IMG/VR virus record: IMGVR_UViG_2645728048_000034
Span: 1-62,864 of that record
Length of the DNA: 62,864 bases
Reading direction: 5' to 3' (one strand)
DNA from: a virus
Taxonomy: Duplodnaviria > Heunggongvirae > Uroviricota > Caudoviricetes
Part shown: positions 6,524-15,788 of the stretch, piece by piece
Position numbering within the stretch: position 1 is the first letter of the stretch
Layout: the number at the start of each line of letters is the position of its first letter
Program-made: the position numbers and the translations under genes
Notes under the pieces: generated by a model
The model's input: only the letters and a program-made list of their open reading frames with translations
Databases searched by the model: none
Told to the model about the DNA's origin: nothing

Positions 6524-6694
6524 TTAAAGTTCGTGTGCCATCTGGTCTTTTTCGGCACAGATTTCACTACAATATTTTTTCATTTCCGTCGTTGGTATAA
6601 CTCCACGCATGAAATGAAGTGGTCTTGTAATGATTTTGCTTTCTTCAATTTCTTTATTGCAAAGGTGATAAGCACATTTTATTTTCTTAGTCAT
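6524..6694 (-). CDS. ydaE: YdaE-like zinc-binding protein (56 aa)
   Basis: Sub-threshold ORF read by hand: [18 protein letters not shown]...KYCSEICAEKDQMAHEL; start overlaps kilR stop. Confidence 0.5.
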   Translation of the reverse strand: MTKKIKCAYHLCNKEIEESKIITRPLHFMRGVIPTTEMKKYCSEICAEKDQMAHEL

Positions 6695-6915
6695 TACCAT
6701 GACTCCGCCTTTACAGGTAAACCATCACGACCGAGGAAGACTTTAATCATGCAGTCAGAAATGCATGTTTTTGTAGTCAGGCTACGAATATAAAGTTTTC
6801 GCTTTTTAATATTGTTTGCCGAGGCGATATATGTCCGACCTTCATGAAGAACATAATCGCCAGGGGTCACACACTGACGTGGTATTTCATCAGTTCCGAA
6901 GTGATGAGCAATCAT
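6694..6915 (-). CDS. kilR: KilR-like cell division inhibitor
   Basis: 73 aa from [15 protein letters not shown]...; Rac gene order racC-ydaE-kilR. Confidence 0.65.
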
Positions 6916-7323
6916 AATTATCTCCATTTTTACAAATGAATTTTGTCGATGCGGTGCCTGGTGCCTCCAGGTGACGTTAACCAGTTAACAATTAACGCCG
7001 GATAATCCACCCATAACACTGATGCTTTTAACTGTGCCGCGTGCGCTTAGCCGCATTCACCGCATCACAAAATTCACTTTAAAAAGGGGCGGCAGGGCAG
7101 CCACGGAGTAGAACTGATGCCGCCAAAGACTACACATAGCAATGTCGTTATTTACAACCGGAGGCGCACTCCCACCATTTAAATTTAACAGACAAGACCG
7201 ACTCTTTATGGATATCGGAAATGCGCCTTCGTGTTGTGCCCGGTTTTATTTCACCACCTCCGGGCTTTGGTGGTTTCTGCTATACCCCTACAGCGAGAAT
7301 ATTGAATTAATCCAAATAATGGA

Positions 7324-7476
7324 TTAGCAAGTATTTCTGGCAAGCCAGCGACGTGCGCCAGCTTCGGTTTTAAACGTTTTGCTTTTGGTATACGTCATGG
7401 CGGTGAATGTGCCGTCCTGATTGGGAAACACGCCACATACCAGAGATTCGTTGTTGCCAAGATCGATAGTATCCAT
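7324..7476 (-). CDS. YdaF-like protein (DUF1391)
   Basis: 50 aa from MDTIDLGNNESLVCGVFPNQDG...; internal start of 71-aa ORF. Confidence 0.45.
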   Translation of the reverse strand: MDTIDLGNNESLVCGVFPNQDGTFTAMTYTKSKTFKTEAGARRWLARNTC

Positions 7477-7725
7477 GTTGACCTCATTTCCCCTTAACGC
7501 CGGGTGGCGGAACGTTTTATCTACTGCGCTTTGTATCAATCAACAACTGCCGTCATGTTCGTATGCCTCAGGCTGGCTACTTAGCCCTGTTCAGTGGCTG
7601 GATAACTCGAGGTATTGTCCTGCCGTTCTCTGGTGGGGCGTTGTTTGGATATGCTTATTAAACACAATACGTTTTCTTGTGTCAACACGGAATGTGTTTT
7701 GTGGTGGGTGTCATATGATGATGGT

Positions 7726-7750
7726 ACAAAAAAGCCCGCTGATAGCGGGC
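7726..7750 (-). terminator. Rho-independent terminator downstream of repressor gene
   Basis: Minus strand reads gcccgctatcagcgggc followed by T-run. Confidence 0.55.
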
Positions 7751-7781
7751 TGATTGGCATATTACTGTGATAGCAAGATCA

Positions 7782-8201
7782 TTACTCCGGTGGGGGATTA
7801 TCTTTAAGCCTGCCTCTCAAATATTTTTCTACATACTCATCGATTTCTTTTAGCCGGACTTCAAATAGCTCAATCATTCGTTGTTGTTCTGAGCCCGGTA
7901 GCTGGTTAAACAACTCAAGAAGTTTTCGTTGGGATTCATTTAACCACAATTCAGAAGATTCCTGTTCTCCAAAGAGGAGCTCAGGAGGAGATATGCCAAG
8001 TGCCTTTCCCAATATGACAGCGTCATGCACTCCAACATTTCTGCTGCCCGCCTCATAGTTACCTATACGCGATTGCGTCCATCCGCAGATTTCAGCAAGT
8101 TTTCCTTGAGATAAACCAAGCTTCTGCCTGCGCTCTTTAAGACGCATTGCAATTTTGTCATTGAGCCTACTAGCGGCAATTTTTTCGTTTTCTTTTTCCA
8201 T
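7782..8201 (-). CDS. Prophage repressor, XRE-family HTH (CI/RacR-like)
   Basis: 139 aa; HTH LGLSQGKLAEICGWTQSRIGNYEAG; divergent from cro-like gene. Confidence 0.7.
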   Translation of the reverse strand: MEKENEKIAASRLNDKIAMRLKERRQKLGLSQGKLAEICGWTQSRIGNYEAGSRNVGVHDAVILGKALGISPPELLFGEQESSELWLNESQRKLLELFNQLPGSEQQRMIELFEVRLKEIDEYVEKYLRGRLKDNPPPE

Positions 8202-8212
8202 TGCATCCTTGT

Positions 8213-8227
8213 ATCACGAATCGTGAT
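8213..8227. promoter_or_regulatory. Candidate operator: perfect 15-bp palindrome atcacgaatcgtgat in divergent promoter region
   Basis: Seen directly between repressor and cro-like genes; -35-like ttgacc about 20 bp downstream. Confidence 0.4.
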
Positions 8228-8297
8228 TTACATAAAACACAAAATAGCTTGACCATATAACACAAGGTGTGTTTAAAATTGTCATCGGAGGTTTTCA

Positions 8298-8540
8298 ATG
8301 AACAAAATTTCAACATATCGAAAACAGCTTGGGCTGTCTCAAAGACAACTTGCTGTTCAGTTAGGGTGGATACAAAGCCGACTGGCAAATTACGAAGCAA
8401 ATTTTCGTACCCCTGGACTAGAGGAGTGCAGAAAAATTGTTTCTACCCTTAATCGGCTTGGCGCTCATTGTGGACTTGACGATGTATTCCCCCCAGACGG
8501 TAAGCATAGCGAAAACAGCATAGGAGCGGTTGATTCATGA
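8298..8540 (+). CDS. Cro/YdaS-like HTH regulator
   Basis: 80 aa; HTH LGLSQRQLAVQLGWIQSRLANYEA; divergent from repressor. Confidence 0.65.
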   Translation: MNKISTYRKQLGLSQRQLAVQLGWIQSRLANYEANFRTPGLEECRKIVSTLNRLGAHCGLDDVFPPDGKHSENSIGAVDS

Positions 8541-8962
8541 AAATCAGGCATAAGCACATCGAATCAGTGTTGTTAGCCCTGGCAGCCGAAAAAGGGCAGG
8601 CGTGGGTCGCTAACGCAATTACTGAAGAATATCTGCGCCAGGGGGGGGGCGGCGAATTGCCCCTTGTACCAGGCAAGGACTGGAACAATCAGCAGAATAT
8701 CTATCACCGTTGGTTGAAAGGTGAAACGAAAGCGCAAAGGGAAAAAATTCAGAAACTGATCCCTGCGGTTCTGGCAATTCTTCCGCGCGAGCTGCGTCAC
8801 CGACTCTGCATCTTCGATACCCTGGAACGCCGTGCATTACTGGCGGCGCAGGAAGCGTTGAGTACGGCAATTGATGCGCATGATGATGCAGTCCAGGCCG
8901 TTTACCGGAAAGCACATTTCAGCGGTGGTGGGTCGCCCGGCGATTCTGTCGTAGTGCATTGA
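8537..8962 (+). CDS. YdaT-like protein (CII-like regulator)
   Basis: 141 aa; recalled similarity to Rac YdaT; contains a G9 homopolymer in frame. Confidence 0.55.
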   Translation: MKIRHKHIESVLLALAAEKGQAWVANAITEEYLRQGGGGELPLVPGKDWNNQQNIYHRWLKGETKAQREKIQKLIPAVLAILPRELRHRLCIFDTLERRALLAAQEALSTAIDAHDDAVQAVYRKAHFSGGGSPGDSVVVH

Positions 8963-9039
8963 TTGAAATTAATCGTGCCGGATTGTTTTGTTCGGTATCA
9001 GTTAAATGTAACGACGCGAGCGTTACAAGGTGAAAACAA

Positions 9040-9828
9040 ATGGCTTCAAACTGGATAAAGCTCGAGGTTATTACGCCGGATAAGCCGGAAATATTCAGGC
9101 TTGCTGAGATTCTGAATATTGATCCAGATGCCGCATTAGGGAAGGTTATTCGCTTCTGGGCATGGGCGGATCAACAAATGATAGACGGTAATGCAGATTG
9201 TAACGCTCGCGGCGTTACAAAAAGTGCAATAGATCGCATCACTTTTATGGCTGGTTTTGCTGATGCGTTAATTCAGGTTGGATGGCTGGTCGAAAATGAC
9301 GTTGGGCTTTCTCTACCTAACTTTGAACGTCATAACGGAAAAAGCTCAAAAAAACGGGCGGTTACAAACGAGCGAGTTACAAAAATACGCGAACTGAAAC
9401 GAAAAGGTAACGCTGCCAGCGTTACACAAACGGATCAAAAAGCGTTACCAGAGGAAGAGGAAGAGGAAGATCTAAATACTGATCTCCCCCTAAATCCCCC
9501 TCGCCAAAAACGAGCGTCTAAAAAATTCGAGCCGGAGGCTATTGAGCTGCCCGATTGGTTGCCGGAAACACTCTGGCATGAGTGGGTCCGGTTCAGACAG
9601 GCATTGCGAAAACCGATTCGAACGGAGCAGGGCGCTAACGGGGCGATACGGGAACTGGAAAAATTCCGTCAGCAGGGTTTTACACCTGAGCAGGTGATTC
9701 GACACAGCATCGCCAATGAATACCAGGGCCTGTTCGCGCCGAAAGGTGTTCGGCCTGAGACGTTGCTCCGACAGGTTAACACCGTCTCGTTGCCGGACAG
9801 TGCGATCCCGCCAGGCTTCAGGGGGTAA
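9040..9828 (+). CDS. YdaU-like replication initiation protein (DUF1376)
   Basis: 262 aa; position before DnaC-like loader; acidic linker EEEEEED. Confidence 0.55.
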   Translation: MASNWIKLEVITPDKPEIFRLAEILNIDPDAALGKVIRFWAWADQQMIDGNADCNARGVTKSAIDRITFMAGFADALIQVGWLVENDVGLSLPNFERHNGKSSKKRAVTNERVTKIRELKRKGNAASVTQTDQKALPEEEEEEDLNTDLPLNPPRQKRASKKFEPEAIELPDWLPETLWHEWVRFRQALRKPIRTEQGANGAIRELEKFRQQGFTPEQVIRHSIANEYQGLFAPKGVRPETLLRQVNTVSLPDSAIPPGFRG

Positions 9829-9834
9829 CAGACC

Positions 9835-10581
9835 ATGAAAAATATTGCGACAGGAGGCGTTCTGGAGCGTATCCGCAGACTGACCCCACCACATGTAACC
9901 GCCCCATTCAGAACGGTTGCGGAGTGGCGTGAGTGGCAACTTGCTGAAGGCCAGAAACGTTGCGAGGAGATCAACCGCCTGAATCGTCAGTTGCGGGTGG
10001 AAAAAATTCTGAATCGCTCTGGCATCCAGCCGTTGCACCGTAAATGCTCGTTTGCGAATTACCAGGTGCTGAACGACGGCCAGCGATACGCGTTAAGCCA
10101 GGCGAAATCCATCGCCGATGAACTGATGACCGGGTGTACAAATTTTGCGTTCAGCGGAAAACCTGGTACCGGGAAGAATCACTTAGCGGCAGCTATAGGG
10201 AATCGCCTGCTGAAAGACGGTCAGACAGTGATTGTGGTTACCGTGGCTGATGTTATGAGCGCCCTGCACGCCAGCTATGACGACGGGCAGTCAGGCGAAA
10301 AATTTTTGCGGGAGCTGTGCGAAGTGGATCTGCTGGTTCTTGATGAAATTGGCATTCAGCGCGAGACGAAAAACGAGCAGGTGGTGCTGCACCAGATTGT
10401 TGATCGCCGGACAGCGTCGATGCGCAGCGTGGGGATGCTGACAAACCTGAACTATGAGGCCATGAAAACATTGCTCGGCGAGCGGATTATGGATCGCATG
10501 ACCATGAACGGAGGGCGATGGGTGAATTTTAACTGGGAGAGCTGGCGTCCGAATGTTGGTCAGCCAGGAATTGAGAAGTAA
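9835..10581 (+). CDS. DnaC/IstB-like AAA+ helicase loader (YdaV-like)
   Basis: Walker [10 protein letters not shown], Walker B LLVLDEIG. Confidence 0.8.
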
Positions 10582-10603
10582 TTTTTACCGGGAGGAAGTT
10601 TTA

Positions 10604-11365
10604 ATGGAGACTGTTTTTGACGCACTGAAAGCAATGGGAAAAGCCACATCCATAGAACTTGCTGCGCGACTTGATATCAGTCGTGAAGAAGTGCTGAACG
10701 AACTATGGGAACTGAAAAAGGCTGGTTTTGTTGATAAAAGCGCGTACACCTGGCGTGTGGCTGATAACAACGTTCAGCAGGAACAGCCAGCGCAGGCAGA
10801 ACTGCCGGAAGAAACCACCACAGCAACAGTAGCGAAAATCTCAGAGTGCGATTTAACCGCAACGATTGAACAACGCGGACCACAAACGGCTGATGAGCTG
10901 GCTACATTGTTTGGTACCACATCACGCCAAGTGGCTTCAACGCTGGCAATGGCAATCAGCAAAGGTCGTCTGATTCGCGTAAATCAGGGCGGTAAATTTC
11001 GTTACTGCATACCGGGCGATAATTTACCAGCAGAGCCGAAAGCAGCATCGGTAGCGGAAACTGATGGTAAACCCCTTCCTCAGCCAGCAGGTGTTGCGTT
11101 ACCAGTACAGGAAGCTGCTACACAGGAAGATATTAAAACAGAAACTGTAGCGGACATTGTGAAGTCGTTGCCATCGTTCACTGAAACGCAAGCGGATAAT
11201 CTGTTTTTACCATCGCTGCATATGGCAAATCGCGAACTGCGTCGGGCGAAAAATCATGTCCAGAAGTGGGAGCGTGTCTGCGCCGCGCTGCGGGAGCTGA
11301 ACAAACACCGGGATATTGTCCGACAGATTGTCGATTCATCCGGTCGTATTGTGTCGGAAAAGTGA
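10604..11365 (+). CDS. Hypothetical phage protein (DUF1627-like)
   Basis: Start at METVFDAL with ggagg RBS. Confidence 0.5.
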
Positions 11366-11908: not shown

Positions 11909-12121
11909 ATGTCAAATACACAGAAAATTATTAACACTGAAAAATATAACGAGTGGGTGAAAAAATTCTCTGAGCAGATTTTTAAAATTACTGGCGACGA
12001 GAATGTGGCAAAAAATGAATTGGAACCGTGGACACCTGAAGGAAACGCACCAAATTATTGCTGGTGGGAGGTTGATCCGGTTGATGCTGCAAATGAAGCC
12101 ATGAGTTACCACAACGATTAA
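11909..12121 (+). CDS. Hypothetical small protein
   Basis: 70-aa ORF right after repeat copy 1 with ggagg RBS; followed by hairpin. Confidence 0.45.
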   Translation: MSNTQKIINTEKYNEWVKKFSEQIFKITGDENVAKNELEPWTPEGNAPNYCWWEVDPVDAANEAMSYHND

Positions 12122-12153
12122 TGTCGGGAGGCCGCCCGAAAGGGCGGTAAGAA

Positions 12154-12372
12154 ATGACTACATTATTCAGAAAAGAATATCCGCAAAAAAGTAGGGCGAC
12201 AGAATTTTTGTTTCTCATTCTGTTTATCGTATTGATGATACCGATATCCCCTCTAATTTTTGTCTGGGCAATCGGGAAAATAATTGAGCCAGTTACTGAA
12301 TTGTATAACGACGTGGTATGGGCGTCATTCAACACACTGCACAATAAAATTAATCCGTATAAGGAAAACTGA
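12154..12372 (+). CDS. Small membrane protein (1 TM)
   Basis: 72 aa; hydrophobic segment FLFLILFIVLMIPISPLIFVWAIG. Confidence 0.4.
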   Translation: MTTLFRKEYPQKSRATEFLFLILFIVLMIPISPLIFVWAIGKIIEPVTELYNDVVWASFNTLHNKINPYKEN

Positions 12373-12373
12373 T

Positions 12374-12637
12374 ATGGCAACTTTGACAAAAAAAGAACGG
12401 GCATGGTTGAACGAATTACAGGAAGTTCTTGATCGCTGTCCATCACCGAAAAAAATTGGCTTTTACACCATTGGCGATAAAAGCATTTACCTGTATGACC
12501 TACGCCGCATGGATGAAATCATGGAGGCTCTTGATAATCGTTCGTCGATGGATTGGTGTGTTGCTGTTCATGATATGAATGCAGGGTTTGATGAAAAGAT
12601 TTTGTTCCCCTCATCAGTTGAAAGCACTGCGGGTTAA
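12374..12637 (+). CDS. Hypothetical protein
   Basis: Internal start MATLTKKERAWLNEL one nt after previous stop. Confidence 0.45.
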   Translation: MATLTKKERAWLNELQEVLDRCPSPKKIGFYTIGDKSIYLYDLRRMDEIMEALDNRSSMDWCVAVHDMNAGFDEKILFPSSVESTAG

Positions 12638-12768
12638 GGAGTAACACATGACCACTATTACCAAAGAACGTATTGAATTGTTCATTAAATTTTCAGGAGG
12701 CGGTACTGTGAGTGAAATTAGCTATCAGGCTTCAATTACCGCTGGCATTCGCATCAAAGGAGAGGAGC

Positions 12769-13125
12769 ATGGAAATAAAACCAGAGGATGAGTTAAGCAA
12801 TATCGTTTTATTTCCGGTAAAAGAGGATGACCCTCGTAATCAGGTTAATTTTCTTTATGAGCCATCGGAAAGACCATATTGTCATCACGCCTCTGTCCGG
12901 GTTGACGAAAAAGAGCGTCAGGTCCGCTGTAAAATCTGCGGTGCAGTTGTGGAACCATTTGACTGGATGCTCTCTGTGGCGAAAAGAGAAACCAGACTGG
13001 CAGATGATGTAAGGCTCTTGCGTCAGGAGGAGCGGGAAAGGCGAAAAAATATAGAAAAGCTAATTCAGATTGAGCGTAACGCGAAAGCGCGGATACGCAG
13101 GGCGACAAAATCCAGAACTGAATAA
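12769..13125 (+). CDS. Hypothetical zinc-ribbon protein
   Basis: Start MEIKPEDEL after aggagaggag RBS; CHH...CKICG motif; basic C-terminus. Confidence 0.45.
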   Translation: MEIKPEDELSNIVLFPVKEDDPRNQVNFLYEPSERPYCHHASVRVDEKERQVRCKICGAVVEPFDWMLSVAKRETRLADDVRLLRQEERERRKNIEKLIQIERNAKARIRRATKSRTE

Positions 13126-13172
13126 TTAAATTTAGCTCTGTTAAAAATTTAATCCTTAACCGGAGGGATTTC
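13118..13172 (+). repeat. Direct repeat copy 2; associated ORF absent
   Basis: Matches 11851-11908; followed at about 13193 by hairpin gccgcccgaaagggcggc. Confidence 0.6.
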
Positions 13173-13521
13173 TGCACCCTTAGAACATCAGGAAGCCGCC
13201 CGAAAGGGCGGCGGTTCCATTGTTTAACTATCTAATATTGTGCTAAATCTTTTTATAACCATCAAGAATGTTACTACGGTAAAAAAGAAGGATGAGTATG
13301 CTAAATAACTGATTATGTAAGCAGGGGTTGCGAAATACCATTTTTTTAATTCACTTGGGGGTTCTGGGAGAAAATATATTGCAACCGAAAAAATAACTAA
13401 CGCTACAGATGTTAATATGGCATAAGAAACATTGTGACATAATTGCTCATATACGGTTTTATTATTATTTAAAATTATTAGATTTGAACGTGGTTTGTTG
13501 TTTTCCTCAATGTCTGAAATT

Positions 13522-13779
13522 TTAAATACAGTTTTTTTGTTTTTGATCGTAGATCATAATAACCGCGCTCATTAATAGTGCGGTAGTAATTGCTCCAAAG
13601 TTAACAAAAACAGATGCGATAGAGGTTTTCATTATCCCATAGGTAAAACATATGATTAATGATAATGTAAGAGGAATGATGAAGTGTATTGCGATGTCTT
13701 CGAGTAAAATATTTCCGCGTTGATCCGACATTGTTGTGTAATGTTTTTTTATTACACTCATTACGTTAATCTTGTTCAT
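13522..13779 (-). CDS. Small 2-TM membrane protein, second gene of AT-rich cassette
   Basis: 85 aa; two hydrophobic helices; start overlaps upstream gene stop by 4 nt; AT-rich. Confidence 0.55.
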   Translation of the reverse strand: MNKINVMSVIKKHYTTMSDQRGNILLEDIAIHFIIPLTLSLIICFTYGIMKTSIASVFVNFGAITTALLMSAVIMIYDQKQKNCI

Positions 13780-14708
13780 ATTTTTACTCCCCCATTACCA
13801 CTATGTAACTCACTTAGTATATCATTCGCAATGATTTTAACAGTGTCATGAAGTGCTTTAAGATCGGGGATTCCTGTAGATGCGTTTATGTTTAAGTCGT
13901 TATCATCTAATTCGGCAGAAATTCCTTTTCTTAAGATGGTGTCGTAATTAAAAATGACTGTTCTATTGCCTAATTGTAAACTAACTTTTATTGCGTCACA
14001 CTTATCTTCAATTATTTCTATTATATTTCCTAGTTTTTTGTCTTTTAAGTCTTTAAAACTACCAAATACGCCTTGATTTGCTTTTATTACCAAATCAGTT
14101 TTGATGTTTGTTTTGTTATTTCCGAATGAATCCGTGATGTCCTTTGGTGCTTTGTAACCTTGGGCTTTTATTTGTTTTAATTCTGAATCAAGGATGTGTT
14201 GGGGAATTTTTTTGTGGCAAAGGGGATTGATTCTCGCTTCAAGTTTATATTTTGTTTTCAAGTGGTCTAGTAATGCATCAGAGAGTGTGCTGCGAGCAGA
14301 AATATTGTCATTAGCGTGAAATGCTATAATCCCTTCTTCTAAATTGTCTGGCAAAAATATTAAAATGTAACGCTGTTTGAGAGTTACATCGTTGATAGTT
14401 GTTGTATAACGTATTTTAGTAAGTTTATCGTCTTTTATTTCACTGCTCTCACCATATTTCCCAACCTTTACATATCCATATATTACTTGGTTTTGAGCAT
14501 CAAAGGTGAGTGATGTGTGTTGTTCAAGAGAAACCTTTGTTTTCGAGAGACCAAATTCAATAGGTGTGTTTTTATAGCTATTAAAATACTCAACAAATAA
14601 TTCATATGCTGTTTTTTTATCGCTTAAACCTAGGTTGTTTAGTCTTTTGCTGGTTCGGCTGCCCTTGTGGGTTAACACACGGAATGAATAGAAGTTAACG
14701 CTGTGCAT
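13776..14708 (-). CDS. Hypothetical 310-aa protein, first gene of AT-rich cassette
   Basis: Long ORF in AT-rich island, opposite strand to flanking phage genes; no family recognised. Confidence 0.6.
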   Translation of the reverse strand: MHSVNFYSFRVLTHKGSRTSKRLNNLGLSDKKTAYELFVEYFNSYKNTPIEFGLSKTKVSLEQHTSLTFDAQNQVIYGYVKVGKYGESSEIKDDKLTKIRYTTTINDVTLKQRYILIFLPDNLEEGIIAFHANDNISARSTLSDALLDHLKTKYKLEARINPLCHKKIPQHILDSELKQIKAQGYKAPKDITDSFGNNKTNIKTDLVIKANQGVFGSFKDLKDKKLGNIIEIIEDKCDAIKVSLQLGNRTVIFNYDTILRKGISAELDDNDLNINASTGIPDLKALHDTVKIIANDILSELHSGNGGVKI

Positions 14709-15055
14709 GAAAAGTCCTTTTGAACATATAGGAATATATTAGAGCATGTATGTGTGCAATGCATAAAAGGAAAAGCTACCGCAAGGCGACTCCACCCACA
14801 GATAGCTCTTAACTGATTGTTTGTAAAAAATAATACATTAATTATCTTCTGTGTAAAGAGGGAAACAGCCTTAGGGTAAGGGACACGAGTTGGAGGAGGA
14901 TTGGTGAAATTTGCGTTGAGGATAAAACGATTTGCGGGAAAAGGATAGTTAAGTAGAATAGCTGCGGGTGCTTGAGGCTGTCTGCCTCGGGCATGAACAC
15001 CAACGGCAGATAGATAAAAGCCCCACCCGACTATAAATCGAAGTGAGGCCCCTAT

Positions 15056-15268
15056 ATGCTCGTCACATATAGATTGCCTCTTACGGACCGAAAGGTCAAG
15101 GAGAAGCAGGCTATGAAGCAGCAAAAGGCGATGTTAGTCGCCCTGATCGTCATCTGTTTAACCGTCATAGTGACGGCACTGGTAACGAGGAAAGACCTCT
15201 GCGAGGTACGAATCCGAACCGGCCAGACGGAGGTCGCTGTCTTCACAGCTTACGAACCTGAGGAGTAA
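15056..15268 (+). CDS. mok-like overlapping reading frame of hok locus
   Basis: 70-aa frame starting 57 nt upstream of and in frame with hok. Confidence 0.3.
   Translation: MLVTYRLPLTDRKVKEKQAMKQQKAMLVALIVICLTVIVTALVTRKDLCEVRIRTGQTEVAVFTAYEPEE
15113..15268 (+). CDS. hokD: Hok/Gef-family type I toxin (HokD/RelF-like)
   Basis: MKQQKAMLVALIVICLTVIVTALVTRKDLCEVRIRTGQTEVAVFTAYEPEE; RBS aggaga. Confidence 0.85.
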   Translation: MKQQKAMLVALIVICLTVIVTALVTRKDLCEVRIRTGQTEVAVFTAYEPEE

Positions 15269-15334
15269 GAGACCTGGCGGGGGAGAAATCTCCCGCCACC
15301 TCTGATGTGTCAGGCATCCTCAACGCACCCGCAC

Positions 15335-15392
15335 TTAACCCGCTTCAGCGCTGATTTATGGGGATCCCTCAGCGTTTCGGCGGGTTTTTTGT
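15335..15392 (+). terminator. Structured 3' region and terminator of hok mRNA
   Basis: Extended dyad ccgcttcagcgctga...tcagcgtttcggcgg followed by T-run. Confidence 0.45.
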
Positions 15393-15575
15393 TGCGCGCT
15401 GAATGCGCAGGGTGAAAAATAACCATATATTTGATTATATACACAACATAAAATAAAAGTCATTGCACCTGCACATTAAATAATCAAATATACGGCGTGA
15501 AATAAATATTTTTCAGATTAATATTTTTGTCTCTATGTAGATATAACCGTTTGTACTTATAAACCTGGAGGCATC

Positions 15576-15788
15576 GTGGAAAAAATAAAGAAACTATTTA
15601 GTAGCAAATACGCAGTCATACGTCGTGATGACCTGTCAGTTATAGTCGAAATGGATTACTTCCCTGAAACCCCAAAATCAATGATGTATCGTAATGGTCG
15701 AAAGGCAATTTTTTTACCGATGAGGGTAAGTGACATTATGGGAAATGATAAACTGCTGGATGAATTGCGAGTCAGAGCATCCTGTTAG
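15576..15788 (+). CDS. Hypothetical protein
   Basis: 70-aa ORF with ctggagg RBS after AT-rich leader. Confidence 0.4.
   Translation: MEKIKKLFSSKYAVIRRDDLSVIVEMDYFPETPKSMMYRNGRKAIFLPMRVSDIMGNDKLLDELRVRASC

Follow-up and report, generated by a model that had tools for sequence, protein, structure and literature searches.

The RexA protein of bacteriophage lambda (PDB 8TWQ; PF15969) forms dimers, binds DNA non-specifically and resembles RdgC in its fold; with RexB, it belongs to a broad set of RexAB-type systems which also includes Sbash gp30/31 and RexABpp of Pseudomonas putida. RdgC (PDB 2OWL) is a recombination-associated, DNA-binding ring protein encoded by a stand-alone chromosomal gene, with no membrane partner. 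The manner in which lambda RexAB senses infection and that in which RexB acts on the membrane are still unresolved, partly since few clearly related systems are known. Here, we describe a two-gene cassette, composed of genes A and B, on the minus strand of the IMG/VR virus record IMGVR_UViG_2645728048_000034, whose analysed stretch of 62,864 nucleotides (nt), positions 1 to 62,864, is referred to as the window. By analogy with the systems above, we lean towards regarding this cassette as a prophage-borne RexAB-type two-component phage-exclusion module of an unannotated lineage, which is probably inactive in the window. The genes, given with their open reading frames (ORFs), protein lengths in amino acids (aa) and transmembrane (TM) segments, are arranged as follows:

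13776 to 14708, minus strand: gene A, a 310-aa ORF (phrog_15676) encoding a soluble protein with a predicted RexA/RdgC-like fold
13522 to 13779, minus strand: 5′ part of gene B, a truncated 85-aa ORF with TM1 and TM2, including the invariant segment VNFGAITTALLM, and with its stop codon TAA at 13524-13522
13532 to 13538, minus strand: frameshift site in gene B, a homopolymer of seven A residues (A7) where intact relatives have six (A6)
13224 to 13535, minus strand: 3′ part of gene B, encoding out of frame residues ~83 to 184 with TM3, TM4 and the C-terminal TFLMVIKRFS, up to the ancestral stop codon at 13226-13224

Among the described systems, the P. putida pair PP_5643/PP_5644, encoded by prophage P1 and designated RexABpp, has no BLAST similarity to Rex (PMC12894663, 2026). 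RexApp is a DNA-binding dimer and RexBpp a four-TM effector which damages the membrane; together they protect against phages, and cells escape their toxicity when the membrane gene acquires a stop or frameshift mutation (PMC12894663). A comparable outline is found in Kiwa, widespread mobile defence cargo in which the four-TM protein KwaA is paired with a DNA-binding dimer of approximately 310 aa, KwaB (PMC11785009).

Protein A was modelled with AlphaFold2, yielding a mixed alpha/beta structure with a mean predicted local distance difference test (pLDDT) score of 72, which is confident across residues 1-165 and poor across residues 188-225. The top PDB match of this predicted fold was lambda RexA. 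The characteristic elements of the RexA fold are present in the model, namely, a split globular domain consisting of a seven-stranded sheet and helices, an inserted four-stranded alpha/beta dimerisation domain and a long C-terminal helix. Among predicted viral structures, the best matches of the A model were uncharacterised phage proteins of 277 to 322 aa (expectation value [E] 3e-13; template modelling score 0.65), with a further match to a phage “recombination-associated protein.”

At the level of sequence, a relationship between A and RexA was seen only with a profile of 134 A sequences and thus depends on profile depth, the search of A with a RexA-family profile (A4) using hmmsearch being not significant. 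The deep profile was aligned with the RexA family at E 2.8e-4 over 131 co-linear columns and, under other settings, at P 7.7e-5, as against P values of 0.07 to 0.22 for three negative-control pairings. Furthermore, the real A-RexA score of 38.1 compares with a maximum of 23.8 among 60 block-shuffled RexA alignments and with 15.4 for the reversed alignment. A preliminary description of this locus, made from its letters without database searches, had seen no similarity to any known family, a statement which agrees with ordinary hidden Markov model (HMM) searches, in which A had no match in Pfam (E ≤ 1), NCBIfam or PADLOC, but which does not extend to the deep profile of A, as this reaches the RexA family. 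In the profile alignment, the conserved A segment LEARINPLCHK falls on VQIEPLMRG of RexA, within the strand leading into the G140 hinge loop, while DLVIK of A falls on DIVIKPK. The model and the profile alignment suggest that A is remotely homologous to RexA, belonging to the RexA/RdgC fold class and lying outside the Pfam RexA family, and the structural part of the RexAB-type reading, taken alone, is likely to be correct.

The profile alignment also bears on the proposal that A may be a HEPN-type RNase acting with a small membrane effector, which had been put forward from a weak R-x5-H motif. This motif is indeed present as E157-A-R159-I-N-P-L-C-H165, with E157 and R159 invariant in the close family. 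However, it is situated on a strand (residues 157-162) and a low-confidence loop of the mixed alpha/beta model instead of on a HEPN helix, some members have N or Y in place of H165, and no HEPN family of Pfam or PADLOC was matched among the 134 A members. Given, in addition, that the motif aligns with IEPLMRG on the hinge-leading strand of RexA, the HEPN proposal is effectively refuted.

The family to which A belongs is large. Whereas a word-indexed search with A returned 37 clusters, all from Enterobacterales and all of approximately 310 aa, an exhaustive profile search recovered 591 cluster representatives (50% identity) at E ≤ 1e-3 across the Gammaproteobacteria, nearly all of which are 300 to 320 aa long and match A end to end. 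PHROGs searches placed both A and B in families of unknown function only. Among 134 sampled A members, no Pfam (E ≤ 0.01) or PADLOC family was detected, nothing meaningful was returned by PDB sequence-profile searches with narrow and broad A profiles, and a literature search by protein accession found no papers on the A/B family.

The second gene had been presented as encoding an 85-aa protein with two TM segments. The coordinates of the 310-aa and 85-aa minus-strand ORFs and their 4-nt ATGA overlap, through which the genes are translationally coupled, were verified; the 85-aa protein is not a natural product, being instead the 5′ part of a frameshifted gene for a 184-aa four-TM protein. Truncation of B after TM2 results from a single extra A in the window, where A7 at 13538-13532 aligns with A6 in three Escherichia coli genomes (loci L001 and L003 and the 76%-identical L002). 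Past the 85-aa stop, the remaining 102 codons run in the -1 frame, with two further hydrophobic segments, to the TAA at 13226-13224. When the repaired B was used as a tblastn query, the window was matched in two frames, 13779-13534 and 13544-13227, and the 85-aa product covers only positions 1-83 of the 184-position PHROG profile. In the RefSeq annotation of L001 and L002, the intact gene spans 555 nt and encodes 184 aa with the same 4-nt overlap, and full-length members of the B family are approximately 175 to 195 aa in length. One intact allele of the cassette is that of E. coli L73 (NZ_CP033378, 2612558-2614041). Gene A was intact in 25 of 27 IMG/VR loci and disrupted in the other 2; an intact B of 178 to 184 aa with the -4 overlap accompanied 23 of the 25, the remaining two being L007, the only locus sharing A7, and one which runs off its contig. 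The intact form of B occurs on at least 1,000 contigs, and the exact truncated 85-aa form has been deposited from three E. coli assemblies (CTV33930.1, CTV37061.1, and CTV76325.1). The A7 frameshift is a lineage-specific allele, the natural gene encoding the 184-aa four-TM protein; a systematic homopolymer sequencing error is a less likely source of A7.

As B is frameshifted, the module in the window is probably defective, and this copy of the cassette is probably inactive. A separate B frameshift was found in E. coli strain 64EVA (L003, NZ_CP138399, 3202-3630), in which an extra C after a T-run yields a product of 142 aa, and further broken alleles comprise B variants of 143 and 154 aa and a 131-aa truncated A on 31 contigs. 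These independent inactivating alleles suggest recurrent decay or counter-selection of the module, and with B presumed to be the toxic effector, alleles that abolish its function, such as the A7 frameshift, would be expected to accumulate. The recurrent frameshift and truncation alleles may, in that case, constitute a natural record of the cost of carriage.

The model of intact B (pLDDT 87; predicted template modelling score 0.83) consists of four long helices, at residues 26-47, 52-92, 100-135, and 147-183. When the 23 B genes that are intact in IMG/VR loci were submitted to a simple hydropathy scan, 21 scored four TM segments and 2 scored three. Within TM2, homologues of 39% to 99% identity all share the segment VNFGAITTALLM-A--M--QK without change; Y..LC.N and TF.M..KRF are further conserved motifs, and related motif forms persist in the B partners of A proteins which are only about 20% identical. 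Searches of B against Pfam, NCBIfam and PADLOC gave no match, and we know of no RexB structure with which the B model could be compared.

Homologues of A and B were adjacent in every intact locus examined, down to approximately 20% identity and mostly with the same 4-nt overlap, a pairing which is far beyond chance. Every sampled distant A gene was followed by a gene for a partner of 165 to 189 aa that scored four TM segments (the L043 partner was not scored), and of these partners, L034 and L035 retain the motifs VNFGAI and QLY.NIC, which have degenerated in L036, L038, and L043. Loci of B were also inspected in 22 species-representative genomes, covering Enterobacterales, Halomonadaceae, Alteromonas, Vibrio, Alcanivorax, Zobellella, Pseudoalteromonas, five Pseudomonas species, and an Alcaligenaceae metagenome-assembled genome (MAG). 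An upstream A-profile gene was present at 19 of the 22 (E 1e-27 to 1e-103), 18 of them at E 1e-65 or better and the weakest on a short contig; the three loci without such a gene are probably artefacts of crude ORF-start calling.

The genomic settings of the pair are diverse. The cassette is carried by 36 of 5,426 complete E. coli genomes, where it resides in lambdoid prophages in two versions (99% and 76% identical). Elsewhere, A and B were encountered in a conjugative element (a sequencing-run contig) beside TraG, TraH, and an integrase, in the tail module of a myovirus-like prophage and, at another locus, beside a phage integrase, while their neighbours across the species-representative genomes comprised the end of a P2-like tail operon (recurrently), CI-like repressors, conjugation genes, methylases, and known defence genes. 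A and B are mobile accessory cargo, inherited together as a unit and moving between unrelated mobile elements, as implied by the term moron that was initially applied to the cassette. These settings are pertinent to a role intrinsic to the prophage or element, in which A would be a RexA/RdgC-like DNA-binding modulator of recombination, of replication, or of the switch between lysogeny and lysis, and B would serve as a membrane anchor or modulator. The module occupies unrelated positions and elements (the nin region, tail modules, conjugative elements, and a site beside Qat genes), and such scattered positions and element types therefore fit portable cargo rather than a core regulatory role. 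The opposite orientation, AT richness, and sporadic distribution of the E. coli cassette also speak against an intrinsic role, and a purely DNA-level function would leave its strict co-inheritance with a four-TM protein unexplained; we consider this explanation quite unlikely.

Several of these loci merit separate mention. At L052, L054, L060, L064, and L067 (each at ~6550-11200; Halomonas group and Pseudomonas), a P2-like tail operon (tape measure, GpU, and GpD) ends facing the module, which is convergent with it; the site after gpD may therefore be a slot in which P2-like prophages recurrently carry cargo. At L043 (498-4955), a distant A/B pair (A ~19% identical) is located directly downstream of QatB, a 436-aa gene, and a TatD-DNase (QatD-like) gene, which is a defence-island arrangement; the unannotated 436-aa gene possibly encodes QatC. 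Locus L047 (QFQM01000595.1, 1,666 bp), from a MAG bin labelled Flavobacterium psychrophilum, encodes a B protein 71% identical to that of E. coli along with a partial gene A, and is most likely a mis-binned enterobacterial contig rather than an occurrence in Bacteroidota.

The likeness of the cassette to lambda RexAB lies in a four-TM inner-membrane protein encoded directly after a RexA-like gene, as seen for intact B, with only TM1 and TM2 in frame in the window. What B and RexB share is limited to size, four TM helices, and gene position, B being the longer (184 versus 144 aa), and the lambda rexAB genes are separated by a short gap whereas those of the cassette overlap by 4 nt. Canonical rexAB was located directly after a CI-like repressor gene in five of five loci examined, and no canonical rex genes were found in the window. 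The RexA/RexB parallel drawn in the preliminary description is strengthened by A, through its top PDB match and a deep-profile score above that of the shuffles; B has no detectable sequence relation to RexB. In addition, no match to the Pfam RdgC family was found in the 134 A members.

For comparison with RexABpp, its sequences were recovered from KT2440 prophage P1 (L068, 573-2134), with the gene ends rebuilt from the published primers. Similarity between RexApp and A was not significant by hmmsearch and hhalign (P 0.12 with a single sequence and 0.004 with a two-sequence profile). None of 22 B homologues carries more than three of the seven reported RexBpp residues at any offset, and RexBpp is devoid of the MNKIN, VNFGAI..ALL, and MVIKRF motifs conserved in B. 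Moreover, RexABpp is encoded a few genes downstream of a CI-like repressor and has been experimentally tested. Identity of the cassette with RexABpp is ruled out, as neither A nor B shows significant similarity, and the cassette most likely represents a third lineage among RexAB-type systems, distinct in sequence from the other two. In KT2440, the native start codon of rexApp (PP_5643), which is replaced in the published cloning primers, is GTG rather than ATG, and the gene is 2 nt from rexBpp.

The shared outline of Kiwa and the cassette, a four-TM protein paired with a partner of approximately 310 aa, raises the alternative of a non-abortive, Kiwa-like mode of action, in which B would be a membrane sensor or anchor and A a tethered, non-specific DNA binder that blocks replication or transcription of incoming phages or plasmids, the cell surviving. 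Such a mode would accord with a DNA-binding dimer in Kiwa (PMC11785009), with the RexA/RdgC fold being a DNA-clamp fold, and with the occurrence of the module on conjugative elements as well as prophages. The cytosolic component of the Rex-type system of mycobacteriophage Butters, moreover, is reported as the effector (PMC12894663). However, A and B bear no sequence or fold relation to KwaA and KwaB: KwaB combines a Rossmann-like domain with DUF4868 and KwaA possesses an intracellular beta-barrel (PMC11785009), in contrast to the all-helical B, and the membrane gene comes first in Kiwa, the reverse of the order in the cassette. Neither KwaA nor KwaB of PADLOC was matched among 134 A and 37 B members, nor was Pfam DUF4868. 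Membership of Kiwa is ruled out by this lack of HMM matches together with the different architecture, and a Kiwa-like mode of action is unlikely. A resemblance of KwaB to RdgC found no support in the literature consulted.

Under the RexAB-type reading, and by analogy with lambda RexAB and RexABpp, dimers of A would sense an infection cue, such as foreign DNA or a DNA-protein intermediate, and would activate oligomeric B. B would then permeabilise or depolarise the inner membrane, whereupon the infected cell would be arrested and phage growth aborted.

A number of observations count against this reading. Lambda RexA was absent from the top 50 matches when the A model was compared with viral models by Foldseek, A had no match to the Pfam RexA model PF15969, and a narrow A profile gave no signal against the 31-sequence RexA family alignment. 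Even for the deep A profile, the hhalign probability of the match to RexA was only 41% (E 2.8e-4) to 62% (P 7.7e-5). For the membrane component, B had no match to PF15968 and an hhalign family-versus-family probability with RexB of 0.1%, and its comparison with RexBpp was not significant (P 0.03 to 0.1). The HMM and structure-based searches that had been recommended for both proteins yielded no family from the HMM libraries and RexA from the structure search of A, but only generic helical bundles from that of B. None of the PADLOC models matched A or B members. The genomic position likewise differs, given that lambda rexAB follows cI on the PRM transcript, whereas the cassette lies between replication genes and Q, on the opposite strand and with a candidate promoter of its own. 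How lambda Rex works is itself still debated (PMC11077077), an anti-phage role of the A/B family is predicted by analogy, and with B truncated in the window the module may do nothing here.

A broader proposal, which we regard as possible though doubtful, is that A and B constitute a distinct, widespread, and unnamed defence system of Gammaproteobacterial mobile elements, in which a RexA-fold DNA sensor is combined with new four-helix membrane effectors. The B family would then be defined by VNFGAI(T/F)(T/S)ALL(M/L)S, with a pore or signalling chemistry unlike that of RexB. If the family is a defence system, annotation tools would gain a common module which they now miss, and a Rex-type system that is native to E. 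coli, amenable to genetics, and equipped with another membrane effector would become available. Three lineages of distinct sequence (lambda, P. putida, and A/B) could then be compared for conserved and lineage-specific features. A large family for which Pfam, NCBIfam, and PADLOC hold no model, with 591 A clusters and intact copies on at least 1,000 E. coli contigs, appears to share the RexA fold and the two-gene design. If the broader proposal is correct, then, with canonical RexAB and RexABpp also considered, the RexA/RdgC clamp fold would have been repeatedly recruited, or would have anciently diverged, to sense infection in general while being coupled to membrane effectors that can be exchanged, and the 70-year-old question of Rex sensing would be opened to a three-lineage comparison. 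For the window itself, the message is more modest, as its cassette is probably a defective copy.

The cassette is distinguished from its surroundings by its guanine-plus-cytosine (GC) content, which at 32.5% is 17 points lower than that of the prophage (the window has 49.7%). An AT-rich island had been placed at 13130-15560; low GC (0.31 to 0.35, with flanks of ~0.5) is confirmed over ~13200-14850, but the island is not continuous to its proposed end, as the hok/sok region (~14850-15450) has a GC content of ~0.5. The flanking genes on the plus strand are, upstream, DUF1627 and DUF977 of the replication region followed by several small unknown ORFs and, downstream, hok/sok, DUF1367, YbcO, and a DUF1133/Q-like antiterminator. 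Because these flanking genes, from DUF1627/DUF977 to the Q-like DUF1133, are phage genes, the cassette is situated in the nin-equivalent region, in line with its original placement within a lambdoid nin region. Three putative signals accompany the genes:

14830 to 14857, minus strand: candidate sigma-70 promoter TTTACA-16-TATTAT, ~120 nt upstream of gene A, matching 10 of 12 consensus positions
14715 to 14719, minus strand: AAGGA, read from the sequence, which resembles a Shine-Dalgarno site and precedes the ATG of gene A by 6 nt
13195 to 13212, no strand assigned: GC-rich hairpin GCCGCCC-TTTC-GGGCGGC, a candidate bidirectional terminator in the gap that separates the end of gene B from the convergent plus-strand gene

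Both hexamers of the promoter are kept in the 76%-identity version of the cassette, and AAGGA is invariant in a three-way alignment. Promoter and terminator scans of the region gave a number of sites not above chance, and the promoter is regarded as a conserved candidate only, from which (14857-14830) the module would be expressed in the lysogen, antisense to the phage early-right operon. The hairpin, with a local fold of approximately -23 kcal/mol on either strand, is kept in L001, L002, and L003, and was missed by a simple terminator scan because its T-tract is weak.

Divergently oriented beside gene A is a complete hok/sok type I toxin-antitoxin locus (14966-15268, plus strand; Rfam sok, 103 bits; Pfam HOK_GEF, E 7e-24), which adjoins the cassette in each of its two E. 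coli versions (99% and 76%) and does not do so outside lambdoid prophages. This neighbour has a bearing on a further alternative, that of an addiction or stabilisation module in which B would be a membrane toxin restrained by A and would act with hok/sok to keep the prophage. The presence of a bona fide hok/sok locus next to either E. coli version, the plausible toxicity of a membrane protein, and the recurrence of B loss-of-function alleles would all be compatible with such a module. Nevertheless, the adjacency does not hold beyond the lambdoid setting in E. coli, A greatly exceeds typical antitoxins in size and is predicted to adopt a DNA-clamp fold, and the 131-aa A truncations which persist on 31 contigs (counted by A alone) are hard to fit with an essential antitoxin, rendering this explanation very improbable.

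Minor features were noted on either side of the cassette. Between DUF977 and the cassette, 11909-13125 (plus strand) holds small, fairly AT-rich ORFs of 70, 72, 117, and 137 aa; a Pfam scan of the 70-, 117-, and 137-aa ORFs detected no family, the 137-aa ORF giving only a weak, sub-threshold Zn-ribbon match. A 70-aa ORF at 15576-15788 (plus strand), with no Pfam match, is located between hok and DUF1367 in a second low-GC patch (GC 0.33 to 0.38). In E. coli L73 (L001), the ORF run at 11909-13125 is missing, such that DUF977 directly precedes gene B, and an IS421 transposase is present between hok and DUF1367.

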